A DNA stretch of 46,366 bases from Candidatus Saccharimonadia bacterium (lineage in GTDB: Bacteria > Patescibacteriota > Saccharimonadia > CAILAD01 > BJGX01): positions 1-46,366 of the forward strand of contig JBCLLP010000003.1 of the NCBI GenBank assembly GCA_039738615.1. The letters run 5' to 3'. Position 1 is the first letter of the stretch, and every line of letters begins with the position of its first letter. Below the pieces are notes generated by a model that did no database searches, was not told where the DNA came from, and saw only the letters and a list, made by a program, of their open reading frames with translations. Shown here in pieces: positions 14,016 through 35,496 of this stretch. Position numbers and translations under genes: made by a program.

Positions 14016-14594
14016 ATGCGTAATATTTATATCGCAGTTTTTACTACTTTCGTAGTTCTGCAACAGGCAATTAACCCCGTACAAATCCCTATTGCCGCGA
14101 CAGCCCTGGCTTCAAGTCAGCCTGCCAGTACAGCAAAACAAAACTACAATCTAAACCTTAACACCAATACTCTCGCTATTGAGCTAAGGGATGAGCGTCC
14201 TACCTTTGATGATGCCGTTCTTAAGCCACTACGCGTGGCCCAAGAAGCCAAAAAGGCCCAAGAAGCCAAAAAGGCCCAAGATCAAGCTGACGCTAAGGCC
14301 GCTATTATGGCCTCTAGCCTAACATCGACCCCTAGAGCACCATTGGTGATAGGTGGTGATGATGCTTGGGCTCAATTGCGCTACTGTGAGGCTGGTGGTA
14401 ACTACACCGCCAACACCGGCAACGGCTACTTTGGTGCCTACCAGTACAATCTCTCTACCTGGGGTAATTATGGCGGTTTTACCCGCCCCGACCTTGCTCC
14501 TCCTGAAGTTCAGGACGCCAAGGCTCGTGCAACCCAGGCTGCTCGTGGATGGTCTCCATGGCCATCATGTGCTCGCCGCCTAGGTCTTTTATAA
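14016..14594 (+). CDS. Secreted resuscitation-promoting factor (Rpf)-family lytic transglycosylase
   Basis: Signal-peptide-like N-terminus, Ala/Lys-rich linker, C-terminal Rpf domain W..L..CE.GGN…NTGNGY.G.YQ…TW…GW.PWP.C. Confidence 0.92.
   Translation: MRNIYIAVFTTFVVLQQAINPVQIPIAATALASSQPASTAKQNYNLNLNTNTLAIELRDERPTFDDAVLKPLRVAQEAKKAQEAKKAQDQADAKAAIMASSLTSTPRAPLVIGGDDAWAQLRYCEAGGNYTANTGNGYFGAYQYNLSTWGNYGGFTRPDLAPPEVQDAKARATQAARGWSPWPSCARRLGLL
14237..14281 (+). repeat. In-frame 18-bp tandem repeat x2.5 (AQEAKK)
   Basis: GGCCCAAGAAGCCAAAAA twice, then GGCCCAAGA; exact copies. Confidence 0.9.
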
Positions 14595-14638
14595 CCTAGC
14601 AAAAGCTAGCCCAATAAAACATAAGTAGGCTTTAAGCC

Positions 14639-14674
14639 GCAATAACCCCCGCTCATTTTAGCGGGGGTTATTGC
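14639..14674. terminator. Strong hairpin between convergent rpf and peptide genes (probable bidirectional terminator)
   Basis: Perfect 15-bp stem GCAATAACCCCCGCT/AGCGGGGGTTATTGC with a 6-nt loop; U-tracts are weak. Confidence 0.7.
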
Positions 14675-14697
14675 AATAGTTACAAAAATAGCTATCT

Positions 14698-14859
14698 ACT
14701 GGACTTACTTTAAAATCGCTCATTCCAGTGTAAATCTGGCCGAGTGAAAACTGTTTTATCTGAAGGAGAAGTATCCGTAGATACATCGAAAGAAGAAAAA
14801 CAGTTTGTAGCCGGTCAGATTTGGCCTAGGGGGCAAAAGAGCTTTAAAGTAAGTTCAGT
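14698..14859 (+). repeat. Dispersed nested-palindrome element (MITE-like), copy 1, 162 bp
   Basis: 17-bp terminal IR ACTGGACTTACTTTAAA/TTTAAAGTAAGTTCAGT, inner IRs, apical GTATC-CGTA-GATAC; near-identical to 23677-23838. Confidence 0.9.
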
Positions 14860-14864
14860 CTAGC

Positions 14865-14975
14865 TTACTGGCAAGCCTCACACTCGATAAGCTCACTAGG
14901 GTCTATGGGGCAAGTCATTAGCTTATCCCAATCGTCATTACTAATTGATCCTGAAGTTTTGGCCGTTTCTGGCAT
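14865..14975 (-). CDS. 36-aa acidic Cys peptide resembling the C-terminal redox tail of ribonucleotide reductase alpha subunit (MPETAKTSGSISNDDWDKLMTCPIDPSELIECEACQ)
   Basis: Hand translation; AGGAGG RBS 9 nt upstream of ATG; own promoter; ends C-x-I-D-x5-CEACQ-stop. Confidence 0.8.
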   Translation of the reverse strand: MPETAKTSGSISNDDWDKLMTCPIDPSELIECEACQ

Positions 14976-15018
14976 AATCCACACCCTCCTTTTGTTTATT
15001 TTATTAAAGCTTGTATCT

Positions 15019-15047
15019 ATCATACCGAAGCGTAAATGGTTTGTAAA
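15019..15047 (-). promoter_or_regulatory. Sigma70 promoter TTTACA-17-TATGAT for the 36-aa peptide gene
   Basis: -35 at 15042-15047, -10 at 15019-15024, 17-bp spacer. Confidence 0.7.
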
Positions 15048-15070
15048 TAGTGTTTGGGAAAGTTTTTATT

Positions 15071-15086
15071 GCACTATATATAGCGT
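15071..15086. promoter_or_regulatory. NrdR-box-like palindrome GCACTATATATAGCGT
   Basis: 14/16 match to the consensus acaCwAtATaTwGtgt, with all core positions conserved; nrdR is present in this window. Confidence 0.7.
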
Positions 15087-15234
15087 AATAAAATACCTTT
15101 CGTGCACTAAAATAGGTAGTATTATATGGTTACCTTCGAATATAACCCGTACAGAGCCACATATTTAGGTCCAGATATGTCTAGCTAGATTGATTTTGGT
15201 AATTATTTAGCTTAAGCGTTACAATAGTAGCAGT

Positions 15235-15930
15235 ATGGATAAACTAAAGCCACCACCACTAACATCAGCCGAGATTCTTGAGTCGTGCAATAAGCTCTAT
15301 GGTAACGAAAATAGCGAGCGAGTATGTCGTGTTATCGAGGAAATATCTCAGGGTTTAGAACTCATCAATATGTACCCCAAAAAAGTAACTTTCTTTGGCT
15401 CTGCTAGATTTGACGAGAACCACCCTGAGTACCAAAAAGCCCGCCAGCTTGCCCATCGGCTATCCAAGGAGCTAGATTATACGGTAGTTACTGGAGGTGG
15501 TGCTGGGATTATGGAAGCCGCCAATAGGGGCGCAAAGGAGGCTGGGGGCAACTCTATTGGAGCTAGTATTCAGCTTCCCCATGAGCAGGTCACCAACCCC
15601 TATACAACCCTAGTAATCCCCTTCAGGTACTTTTTTACCCGAAAGGTAGTTTTGAGTTTTGCCTCCAGGATGTATATTTACTTTCCGGGCGGATTTGGCA
15701 CCCTAGATGAATTCTATGAAATTCTAACGCTAGTTCAAACCGCCAAAATCAGCAAAGTCCCAATTGTCTGCGTGGGGGCTTACTTCTGGGAAACCCTTAA
15801 TGCTCACCTTCACCATGGCCTGATGCTACCTGCTGGGACTATCGACGATATTGATATGGGCCTATACACCATCACCGATGATGAGGATACTATTATGCAG
15901 ATAGCTCGCAAGGCTCAGTCCCGAAAATAA
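15235..15930 (+). CDS. LOG-family (TIGR00730) nucleotide phosphoribohydrolase
   Basis: FFGSAR, TGGGAGIMEAAN.GA, FRYFFTRK, PGGFGTLDE motifs. Confidence 0.93.
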   Translation: MDKLKPPPLTSAEILESCNKLYGNENSERVCRVIEEISQGLELINMYPKKVTFFGSARFDENHPEYQKARQLAHRLSKELDYTVVTGGGAGIMEAANRGAKEAGGNSIGASIQLPHEQVTNPYTTLVIPFRYFFTRKVVLSFASRMYIYFPGGFGTLDEFYEILTLVQTAKISKVPIVCVGAYFWETLNAHLHHGLMLPAGTIDDIDMGLYTITDDEDTIMQIARKAQSRK

Positions 15931-24274: not shown

Positions 24275-25210
24275 TTATTTGGACTCGATATAGCGTTCGG
24301 CCTCTAGCGCAGCCCTACATCCATCACCAGCAGCAGTAATAGCCTGGCGATAGTGCGGATCTACCACATCACCTGCAGCAAACACACCACTAATAGTAGT
24401 AAGGACGTTTCTTTTAACAAATAAATACCCAGCGGCATCCATCTCTAAGGTTCCTTTAAATAGTGATGTGGCGGGGGTGTGGCCAATCGCCACAAACAAT
24501 CCATCGCAGCGAATTTTTGATTGTTTGCCCGTTAGGGTACCCTTAAGCCTAACTCCCTCTACCTTGTTTTTGCCCAGCACCTCTACCACGCTATTATTCC
24601 AGACAACTTCTATTTTTTCGTGGCCCAATACTCTCTCTTGCATAATCTTGCTTGCTCTAAATTGGTCACGACGATGCACAATAGTGACTTTACTAGCAAA
24701 TTTAGCAAGGGTCAGAGCCTCCTCCATAGCACTATCCCCACCTCCCACAACTACTATTGGCATGTCCTGGAAAAAATATGCATCACAGGTAGCACAAGAG
24801 GATATGCCCTTACCCATTAATCTCTGCTCACTTTCAAGGCCCAGCCAATTAGCGCTGGCGCCTGTAGCAATAATAATTGTCCTAGCCAGATACTCCTCCT
24901 TACCTATAAAAACCTTCTTGGGCTGTCCACCTAACTCAACCTTAGTAGTAAGCTCGTAAATTATTTTGGCTCCAAACCTTAAGGCCTGAGCCTTCATCTC
25001 GTCCATTAGCTCTGGGCCCATTATGCCATTTTTAAAACCTGGGAAATTCTCCACCTCACTAGTAAGCAACAGCTGCCCGCCTGGTGTTGGGCCTACAACC
25101 ATCAAACATTTTAGCTTTGCTCTAGCGGCATAAATAGCTGCCGTGTAGCCAGCTGGGCCAGCTCCGACTATGATTATATCGTATTTCTTTGAGATTTTTT
25201 GTTTGGTCAT
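24275..25210 (-). CDS. trxB: Thioredoxin reductase
   Basis: GAGPAG, VENFPG, CATCD, GGGDSAMEE, GD…YRQAITAAG. Start moved to ATG 25210. Confidence 0.96.
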   Translation of the reverse strand: MTKQKISKKYDIIIVGAGPAGYTAAIYAARAKLKCLMVVGPTPGGQLLLTSEVENFPGFKNGIMGPELMDEMKAQALRFGAKIIYELTTKVELGGQPKKVFIGKEEYLARTIIIATGASANWLGLESEQRLMGKGISSCATCDAYFFQDMPIVVVGGGDSAMEEALTLAKFASKVTIVHRRDQFRASKIMQERVLGHEKIEVVWNNSVVEVLGKNKVEGVRLKGTLTGKQSKIRCDGLFVAIGHTPATSLFKGTLEMDAAGYLFVKRNVLTTISGVFAAGDVVDPHYRQAITAAGDGCRAALEAERYIESK

Positions 25211-34750: not shown

Positions 34751-35014
34751 CTAGATAAAGCCGATGGCTTCGTGTAGCTGGTCGCTACTGGGCATATCGC
34801 TCTGCCATATGCCCTGTACGCCACCGTCCTCGCGCAACAATACAAGCGCAGGAACTGATAAAATCTCATAGGTAGATCCCATCTCACTACCTCGACGAGT
34901 ATTGATATCTATCTTGTTTATACTAATACTATTCTGCTTTAGACTAGTGAGCAGTTTTTGAATTTCAATACTTTCTGGGTTATCTATGCCTGACGAGAAT
35001 AATAATGCCTTCAT
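34751..35014 (-). CDS. Thioredoxin/glutaredoxin-like fold protein with no cysteines
   Basis: Trx-like pattern (…YEILSVPALVLL…G), but DNPES occupies the CxxC position; follows nrdR. Confidence 0.55.
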   Translation of the reverse strand: MKALLFSSGIDNPESIEIQKLLTSLKQNSISINKIDINTRRGSEMGSTYEILSVPALVLLREDGGVQGIWQSDMPSSDQLHEAIGFI

Positions 35015-35037: not shown

Positions 35038-35496
35038 TTAATTATGAAGTTTCTTGATTTTATTTAATTCCTTCTCAAAGCTACCAATGCTTGTAAAACT
35101 CCGATATACGCTCGCAAATCTTACATACGCCACATCATCGGTAGCTAAAAGCACATCCATGGCTATTTGGCCAAGCCTACGAGTAGCTAACTCAACTTTA
35201 TCTAGCCCTCTCGCCTGGCGTTCTATCTCGGATATAACTTCTTCAATCTTATCGGCTGATACTGGGCGCTTCTCGAATGCTTTATAAATACCTCCTGAAA
35301 GTTTTTGGCGACTAAATAATTCCCTCTCACCACCTTTTTTGATCACCATAAGGTTAGCTACTTCTGGCCTCTCATACGTTGTAAAACGACGGCTACATTC
35401 ACTGCATTCACGACGGCGACGAATAGAAAGTCCATCATCGACCTCTCTAGACTCCAGAACTCTGCTAGTTTGAGCGCTACAGTCAGGACACTTCAC
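35038..35496 (-). CDS. nrdR: Transcriptional repressor NrdR
   Basis: CPDC…VLESR…IRRRREC..C..RFTTYE, ATP-cone, VAYVRFASVYR.F. Confidence 0.97.
   Translation of the reverse strand: MKCPDCSAQTSRVLESREVDDGLSIRRRRECSECSRRFTTYERPEVANLMVIKKGGERELFSRQKLSGGIYKAFEKRPVSADKIEEVISEIERQARGLDKVELATRRLGQIAMDVLLATDDVAYVRFASVYRSFTSIGSFEKELNKIKKLHN

Follow-up and report, generated by a model that had tools for sequence, protein, structure and literature searches.

The window analysed here is a stretch of 46,366 nucleotides (nt) from a Candidatus Saccharimonadia bacterium (assembly GCA_039738615.1, contig JBCLLP010000003.1, positions 1 to 46,366 of the forward strand), whose genome assembly comprises 473 kb in 21 contigs and is 85% complete. 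On its minus strand it carries a gene for a peptide of 36 amino acids (aa) that ends in C-x-x-C-Q. By sequence comparison this peptide is homologous to the C-terminal tails fused to class I NrdA, the large subunit of ribonucleotide reductase (RNR). With a probability of roughly 0.72 we read it as a free-standing, trans-acting re-reduction tail of class I NrdA, and it probably supplies the missing C-terminal end in trans to an NrdA that has lost its own. A free redox tail serving a tail-less RNR encoded elsewhere had been proposed in the initial annotation of this DNA. That proposal is now supported by the homology to NrdA tails, by the linkage of related genes to nrdAB, by a tail-less NrdA in the same genome and by NrdR boxes.

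The microprotein gene and its conservation

The coding sequence and its translation signal are located as follows.

14865..14975, minus strand: microprotein coding sequence, 36 aa, stop codon included (ATG at 14975-14973, stop codon ending at 14865)
14985..14990, minus strand: Shine-Dalgarno sequence AGGAGG, 9 nt 5' of the microprotein ATG

The 36 residues are the same as those read earlier from the minus strand, as both the sequence and the list of open reading frames (ORFs) confirm, and the ribosome binding site previously placed at a distance of 9 nt was found at 14990-14985. In the peptide an acidic stretch is followed by W-D-K-x-M, C-P-I-D-P, five further residues, C-x-x-C-Q and the stop codon. 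There are three cysteines (C22, C32 and C35), and C32-x-x-C35-Q36 stands directly before the stop codon. An alternative reading of 52 aa from the ATG at 15023 has no Shine-Dalgarno site and is unconserved.

With the single peptide as query, matches were obtained in 31 of 61 related genomes (E<=1). A profile of the peptide matched 30 of the 60 genomes of the order (E<=0.1), the window genome (G000) included. By family the profile matches were distributed over f1 (26/31), f4 (2/2) and f6 (1/8), where f1 is the window's own Saccharimonadia family and 26/31 counts its other genomes; at the same threshold there was no match in f2 (0/14), f5 (0/3) or f3 (0/1). All 30 homologous loci that were fetched contained a small ORF with a C-x-x-C-Q-stop end, and in all 30 a Shine-Dalgarno-like GGAG, GAGG or AGGA was located 4-16 nt 5' of the chosen start codon. 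Residues C22, P23, P26, C32, C35 and Q36 were invariant and W16, D17, K18, M20, I24, D25, L29 and E31 near-invariant. The CxxC-Q end did not vary in any of the 25 aligned homologues, nor did it in a wider alignment. A LOG-family neighbour was kept at 20 and an Rpf-like neighbour at 12 of the 30 loci.

For the 22 core codons the mean proportion of nonsynonymous differences (pN) was 0.09 and that of synonymous differences (pS) 0.81 (378 pairs from 28 loci; L033 and L034, which have an indel, were left out). These values show that the peptide gene is under strong purifying selection, with synonymous sites near saturation. As judged from the alignments, the microprotein gene is real and conserved. 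The conserved homologues expected in the initial annotation were thus found, and the small ORF, the CxxCQ end, the Shine-Dalgarno sites and the NrdR boxes described below are kept across the order. Its argument that intact start signals speak against a gene fragment also held, in view of the start signals at every locus and of the pN and pS values. A non-functional remnant of the nrdA 3'-end, or a chance ORF, would agree with the very short length and the absence of a family annotation. Such an origin is hardly credible, and the selection data already contradict it: the gene is kept from family to family, its synonymous sites being saturated and its replacements few, and it has its own Shine-Dalgarno sequence and start codon in 30 of 30 loci, conserved NrdR boxes and stable synteny.

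In a collection of 5.8 billion proteins, 114 clusters of 29-71 aa matched (E<=0.01), none of them with a Pfam domain, and the only names attached to them were 'hypothetical protein' and one uninformative mgnify label. A representative library yielded 19 matches at E<=0.001; 15 were proteins of 29-58 aa, and the remaining four, of 654-2118 aa, were each matched in several stretches. Searches with the peptide identified no family, neither in Pfam (E up to 10) nor in NCBIfam (E up to 1), and an Rfam search of 14400-15400 gave nothing close to a gathering score. Sequence searches of the PDB produced one chance match with the peptide profile and none with a 30-aa fused tail. The ESM Atlas returned 'hypothetical protein' clusters only; the nearest cluster bearing a Pfam domain had PF02867 on 14% of its members (score 0.76), a weak lead.

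Three side observations were made in these searches. Many of the database clusters (P0083-P0114) represent a second peptide subtype, ...EEDFLA(N/Q)VCP(I/L)(D/N)P...C(E/Q)ACQ, of which L034 (G045:C11, 1498-1599, minus strand) is an example. The gene calls of P0001, P0002, P0017, P0041, P0097, P0110 and P0113 run past CxxCQ into unrelated sequence (for example ...CEACQQQQQ...), as if the gene caller had passed over the stop codon or another genetic code had been applied. Partial second copies of the motif (profile positions 14-36) occur at G020:C113:14644-14712 and G022:C351:27064-27132, in open frames of 62 and 72 aa; G022, a bin with 2.2 Mb in 630 contigs, is possibly mixed.

Relationship to NrdA tails and distribution of tail-less NrdA

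The relationship to NrdA was recognised with profile A5, made from eight more distant small homologues. It matched the extreme C-termini of two full-length NrdA proteins of 872 and 955 aa, encoded by Patescibacteria that do not belong to the class. Each has PF02867, PF00317 and ATP-cone domains, and their ends read ...ALVCPVDPQERLQCDSCQ and ...QVPVDPQEKFLCESCQ (given also as ...CPVDPQERLQCDSCQ and ...VPVDPQEKFLCESCQ). The spacing of P-x-D-P, five residues and C-x-x-C-Q-stop is identical in the window peptide and in these fused tails. When the peptide profile was compared with the 872-aa NrdA by hhalign, residues 18-36 aligned with 854-872 (E 4.7e-6, probability 86%). Comparison with a stand-alone family of about 58 aa gave E 2.9e-10 and a probability of 97%. 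With the tail of the long-type NrdA of f2 the alignment was at the very end, gapped and weak (E 0.006, probability 6%). A homologue search with the last 52 residues of one f2 NrdA retained 2 proteins from 37 candidates and was uninformative on tails outside that lineage.

When the sample was widened to 401 genomes of the class, homologues were detected in 115 of them with profile A5 at E<=0.001 (f11 86/169, f10 3/26, f14 2/38, f1 22/31, f4 1/2), and the window peptide was recovered at E 3.9e-5. Outside the window's order the homologues are about 55-70 aa long, have a helix-like N-terminal segment and end in (A/C)P(L/I)DPA..(5)C..CQ. The D-W-D segment of the window peptide is not present in the ~58-aa operonic forms. 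Of the 92 matches outside the order (91 genomes), 90 lay on the same contig and strand as a ~805-aa NrdA, 124-2679 bp beyond its Pfam match. Thirty-nine were within 500 bp, directly after nrdA, and the other 51 were at 1.2-2.7 kb, after nrdB in the one case examined (L182). The two unlinked exceptions were a match at a contig start and a second copy. Among the matches listed, the 91 genomes with the tail protein and the 91 with an NrdA of the same E-value band paired one to one. At the seven operonic loci read, the NrdA C-terminus was ...GFGFAK or similar and had no cysteine.

Synthesis of the small protein by read-through or frameshifting from nrdA was considered and rejected. The frame of the small ORF relative to nrdA varied (same in three of the seven junctions, different in four), which makes read-through unlikely, and each junction had a purine-rich Shine-Dalgarno-like stretch and an ATG. 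At L182 (G243:C2) the tail gene comes after nrdB; an NrdR-box-like sequence and TATAAT just upstream of it suggest an internal promoter within the operon.

The distribution of cysteines bears on a further explanation, a small Zn- or Fe-binding peptide or metallochaperone with the cysteines as ligands. The three cysteines of the window form would suit such a role. Family-wide, however, just two are invariant: in the f11 form only the CxxC pair is kept, and the first Cys is replaced by Ala or Val there and in one fused tail. Two thiols make no typical structural metal site, and no metal-site family was matched in Pfam or NCBIfam. We regard a metal-binding function as very unlikely.

The evolutionary reading suggested by these comparisons is that the peptide family is the tail of the ~805-aa NrdA subtype, split off by gene fission. 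The free tail would have persisted when the window's order acquired or kept the ~920-aa NrdA subtype, and the cis tail of the latter would then have decayed repeatedly. Possibly nrdAB was exchanged in the order and the free tail kept, for the peptide has more in common with the shorter subtype's tail than with the tail of its present partner.

In the genome of the window PF02867 is matched only by a class I NrdA of 918 aa that carries ATP-cones; NrdB comes next to it, and both lie on another contig than the peptide gene. NrdD was not detected in this genome, which is 85% complete. The C-terminus of this NrdA reads ...STHKREAASTIASNAPEPTNKIKGVPNVNQ (given also as ...APEPTNKIKGVPNVNQ) and has no cysteine after the TTYY motif. 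The sole large subunit detected is therefore devoid of tail cysteines, as the initial annotation had suspected. In the sister family f2, in which no peptide was found, the long-type NrdA ended in ...VCSILDPDCEACQ in 10 of 10 examined. In f1, 22 of 28 other NrdA proteins had no tail cysteines, and the peptide was detected in 17 of those 22 genomes. The six remaining f1 cis tails have the form ...C(A/S/L)I...(D/E)CEACQ, one of them degenerate (CEAYQ).

An NrdA tree was constructed from 21 of about 50 available sequences, with the tail region excluded and midpoint rooting. In this tree two tail-bearing f1 sequences were nested among tail-less sisters, and the tail-bearing, peptide-free f2 formed the sister clade. 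Read by parsimony, the tree implies that the tail was lost about six times independently within the peptide-bearing clade and was retained in the peptide-free f2. Repeated loss of the cis tail is the expected outcome if cis and trans tails are redundant. Outside the order, the tail was kept in six of the nine long-type NrdA proteins read (f17, f13, f28), and no peptide was found in those families, which fits the reading of the peptide as a tail acting in trans.

NrdR boxes, a modelled complex and the proposed cycle

The regulatory features of the peptide gene, and the presumed repressor gene, are the following.

15071..15086, no strand assigned: NrdR box 1, reading ACGCTATATATAGTGC on the minus strand, 14/16 matches
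15038..15053, minus strand: possible NrdR box 2, read from the sequence, only the left half-site ACACTAT good
15019..15047, minus strand: sigma-70-like promoter TTTACA-17-TATGAT, from a promoter scan, 10/12 matches
35038..35496, minus strand: nrdR, zinc ribbon and ATP-cone, 152 aa, the presumed repressor

Sites were scored against the 16-bp NrdR-box consensus ACACWATATATWGTGT. Box 1, predicted earlier as a 14/16 match upstream of the gene, proved to be the best in the genome, namely the sole site with <=2 mismatches in the whole 473 kb. At <=3 mismatches there were 12 sites genome-wide, no more than in shuffled sequences (10-18). Box 1 agrees with all six positions called highly conserved in NrdR boxes (C4, A6, A8, T9, T11 and G13; PMC13584703). 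A box with >=12/16 matches was located 5' of 24 of the 30 homologues, as against 2 of 284 control windows (200 nt, same loci), and all six of the conserved positions listed in PMC13584703 were satisfied 5' of 21 of the 30 peptide genes.

Box 2 has its start 33 bp beyond that of box 1, across a 17-bp linker, and its half-site coincides in part with the -35 hexamer. Upstream of nrdA in the same genome there are two NrdR boxes with starts 33 bp apart and a 17-bp linker (L001, 430-478). Box pairs spaced 31-33 bp (start to start) were found at 12 loci (L007, L008, L010, L011, L012, L014, L018, L019, L023, L026, L027 and L034), and the 33-bp register of boxes 1 and 2 is the same as in L007, L008 and L010. 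Going by these spacings, the half-site may mark a second NrdR box in front of the peptide gene. From the boxes and the presence of nrdR, the microprotein is presumed to be under NrdR control. Box 1 lies about 110 nt upstream of a LOG promoter-like site and might also govern the divergent LOG gene.

The promoter noted in the initial annotation was found again at 15047..15019. The scan returned 3 sites in the kilobase, as against 1.9 expected from shuffles, and taken alone the promoter-like site is weak evidence. Its -35 region, ...CACTATTTACAAA..., recurs at numerous loci belonging to the same family, as a visual impression rather than a count. Directly 3' of nrdR an 87-aa ORF (34751-35014, minus strand) without cysteines matched the thioredoxin family TIGR01068 weakly, far below the cut-off (E 0.0025); it may encode a Cys-less thioredoxin-fold protein in the nrdR operon.

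A complex of the peptide (25-sequence alignment) with NrdA residues 195-918 (21-sequence alignment) was modelled. Three runs scored 0.57, 0.61 and 0.61 (reported as 0.61), whereas the best of three controls scored 0.00. This mark was attained in 58 of 80 solved complexes, compared with 2 of 110 mismatched pairs; the calibration is rough only, own alignments having been used here. The runs shared at least 78% of their contacts, and the predicted local-distance difference test (pLDDT) value of the peptide was at least 65. On NrdA the confident interface comprised 335-336 (C336), 548-550 and 552 (N548, C550, E552), 565 (C565) and 868 (Y868). On the peptide it comprised residues 16-24 and 31-36 (ECEACQ), with W16-M20 touching NrdA 845-852 and 512-519. 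The interface motifs SSCFL (C336), NLCTEI (N548/C550/E552), AVCNLGS (C565) and the YY dyad (Y868) were invariant in the NrdA alignment; following established RNR biochemistry, these four motifs are assigned catalytic roles, with C336 and C565 as the redox cysteines. The structure modelling suggested in the initial annotation thus places the CxxC end, in the model only, at the active-site cysteines C336, C550 and C565.

The same interface would suit a regulator that mimics the tail, fills the active-site channel or the cleft for the NrdB C-terminus, and inhibits or gates RNR, much as the small RNR-binding inhibitors Sml1 and Spd1 do in yeasts. The modelled contacts take in the substrate pocket as well as residues 845-852, next to the Y867/Y868 dyad. 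A D-W-D segment occurs in the peptide, and the NrdB of this genome ends in ...TLDWN. In addition, tail binding and substrate binding are described as mutually exclusive (PMC11903788). On the other hand, co-repression with nrdAB by NrdR is more in keeping with a subunit than with an inhibitor, the CxxC-Q that is invariant in 25 of 25 homologues would be superfluous for steric inhibition, cis tails were repeatedly lost exactly where the peptide exists, and the ~58-aa operonic forms do without D-W-D. An inhibitory role appears improbable.

If the peptide acts as a tail in trans, the following cycle can be proposed. NrdR would co-repress the peptide gene and nrdAB through the NrdR boxes, so that their products are made together. 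The peptide would dock on NrdA by its acidic-Trp-Asp-Lys-Pro-Met segment, and its C-x-x-C-Q end would thread into the active site. There the dithiol of the peptide would reduce the C336-C565 disulfide formed in each turnover. The oxidised peptide would then be released and recharged by a thioredoxin (Trx)- or glutaredoxin (Grx)-type protein and thioredoxin reductase. Binding, thiol-disulfide exchange and the identity of the reductant are inferred by analogy with the role of fused tails (PMC9531940, PMC11903788, PMC4520616). As ultimate electron source the window offers one candidate.

24287..25183, minus strand: trxB, thioredoxin reductase (TIGR01292, 396 bits against a cut-off of 343)

On contig C9 of the same genome (3544-4702; loci L145 and L147) a second TrxB-like gene (TIGR01292, 313 bits, below the cut-off) is directly followed by a glutaredoxin/NrdH-like gene (PF00462, 62 bits), and the two together may be a dedicated reductant for the RNR system. 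A thioredoxin-like gene is also encoded in the genome.

Several observations weigh against the trans-tail reading. The peptide is nearer to the tail of the other NrdA subtype than to the ancestral tail of its present partner. In f1, five genomes with a tail-less NrdA (76-93% complete) had no detected peptide, and six hold a cis tail and the peptide together. Tail-less long-type NrdA without a detectable peptide was found in g16 of f6 (6/6), in f18 (2/2) and in G104 (f28). Profile searches for the peptide gave nothing in these lineages, and for g16 a combined profile at E<=10 gave nothing sensible. In g16 nrdB directly follows nrdA, and nothing suitable was located downstream of nrdB. The CxxCQ-stop DNA pattern occurred at 31 places in five g16 genomes, none like the peptide family, and the NrdR-box pattern in three g16 genomes picked out the nrdA promoters, one site before rplJ and one other site. 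The tail, in cis or in trans, may therefore be dispensable, or another solution may exist. In G045 (99% complete) the peptide occurs in a variant form (...EEDFLANVCPLNPDNIEDCQACQ) together with two NrdR boxes, but the sole RNR there is a class II-type enzyme that carries a Cys-rich end itself, and NrdB is absent. The 17-bp linker in the window is one bp over the reported predominant linker of 15-16 bp, with starts 31-32 bp apart (PMC13584703). Finally, solved structures exist of the alpha-tail in the active site and of the beta-tail on alpha (PMC11903788); the model may draw on them and would then show likeness, not binding. The tail-less, peptide-less NrdA genes referred to here are at L074-L079 and L164-L166 (g16) and at L189-L191 (G104, G082 and G132).

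Of the proposal in the initial annotation, the comparative part stood: the peptide and tail-less NrdA co-occur strongly. The expected co-occurrence was imperfect (g16, f18, G104, G045 and the six genomes with both tails), and the closest fused relatives are the tails of the other NrdA subtype.

G045 and the six genomes with both tails speak for a different role, that of a mini-redoxin, or an electron carrier, dedicated to the NrdR regulon. Instead of standing in for the NrdA tail, the peptide would then serve RNRs generally, class II enzymes with a Cys-rich domain included, or another RNR-linked step such as maintenance of the NrdB cofactor. A class II RNR with a Cys-rich domain used neither thioredoxins nor glutaredoxins, and its electron source was left open (PMC5704485). 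Against a general carrier, the family appears as a fission product of the NrdA tail that lies right after nrdA or nrdAB in 90 of 92 matches, its f11 form retains just the CxxC pair, and the model sets the CxxC at the NrdA active site. We consider such a carrier unlikely, and it overlaps with a trans-acting NrdA tail more than it contradicts it. A related possibility, which we hold only tentatively, is that the free dithiol peptide, diffusible and 30-36 residues long, has become an autonomous, NrdR-co-regulated electron shuttle, uncoupled from its parent RNR and serving a non-ancestral NrdA in this order and, perhaps, a class II enzyme in at least one genome. An autonomous shuttle would make the cis tail of the enzyme redundant, from which the roughly six independent tail losses would follow.

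The surroundings of the peptide gene contain these further features.

15235-15930, plus strand: LOG/SLOG-family gene, divergent neighbour of the peptide gene
14016-14594: Rpf-like transglycosylase gene, convergent neighbour of the peptide gene
14644..14669, no strand assigned: GC-rich hairpin, possible shared terminator, read from the sequence, about 195 nt 3' of the peptide stop codon

In accordance with the initial annotation, there is no RNR coding sequence upstream: the genes near the microprotein ORF are the LOG-family and Rpf-like genes, and nrdAB is on another contig. The hairpin sits between the peptide gene and the convergent Rpf-like gene and is a possible terminator common to both, although the terminator scan made no call. 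Enzymes for the maturation of ribosomally synthesized and post-translationally modified peptides were not found among the neighbours, which are the LOG-family and Rpf-like genes here and nrdA and nrdB in other families.

Comparison with known systems and meaning

Among characterised systems, the split class II RNR NrdJa/NrdJb of Pseudomonas aeruginosa comes closest; there NrdJb performs thiol-disulfide exchange with the active site (PMC4520616). By analogy the peptide appears to work like NrdJb: in both cases the redox-cysteine part of the large subunit is on a separate gene, and the catalytic subunit keeps the catalytic machinery. NrdJb is a folded zinc-binding Cys-rich domain with six cysteines (PMC5704485), whereas the peptides of the present family have 29-71 aa and two invariant cysteines, three in the window form. 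NrdJb belongs to class II and its gene lies beside nrdJa; the peptide has a class I tail origin, and in the window's family its gene is unlinked and has its own NrdR-box promoter. The relatives in other families are linked in 90 of 92 matches, but to a class I nrdA. The best reading of the sequence data is that the peptide is a class I counterpart, smaller than NrdJb, of the split class II NrdJa/NrdJb.

Like the cis tail of NrdA or NrdE, the peptide has a CxxC at the extreme C-terminus, is homologous in sequence and is predicted to meet the same active-site cysteines. The corresponding cis tail cysteines of class I enzymes are C754/C759 in E. coli. In B. subtilis they are C695/C698 (PMC11903788). 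The reductant TCEP is reported to work through the C-terminal cysteines (PMC4078304). Unlike a cis tail, the peptide is unattached and encoded by a separate gene, and it needs a docking determinant and expression signals of its own. The docking determinant may be the acidic-W-D-K-P-M segment or, in the 58-aa forms, the helix-like N-terminal segment. NrdH-redoxin, glutaredoxin and thioredoxin resemble the peptide as dedicated dithiol donors tied to RNR operons, and in Facklamia ignava a Grx domain is fused to NrdB (PMC6187632). These proteins (75-110 aa) have the thioredoxin fold and reduce the tail, whereas the peptide would replace the tail; its 36 residues are too short for that fold, and it matched no Pfam or NCBIfam family. 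In open-access papers and bioRxiv, a search turned up no account of a class I tail encoded by a gene of its own. This agrees with the earlier statement that no characterised family of this kind is known, as does the labelling of the family in databases as hypothetical or unnamed.

RNR is an essential enzyme, and textbooks explain its re-reduction half-cycle by a tail that is attached to it. If in class I the tail can work as a free microprotein, docking would become separable from thiol-disulfide exchange by experiment, and the way in which the tail finds the active site and the redoxin would be directly testable with a synthetic peptide. The gene would also be a clear case of a split gene that moved elsewhere while staying under one repressor, and of a role in an essential pathway for a gene of under 40 aa that ORF cut-offs miss. 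If the autonomous-shuttle reading is true, no smaller protein would be known as a dedicated redox carrier of an essential enzyme, and the peptide would be present in many Saccharibacteria. For the Saccharibacteria (TM7) a free tail would fill an annotation gap, in which nrdA looks truncated and the small gene is uncalled or 'hypothetical'.

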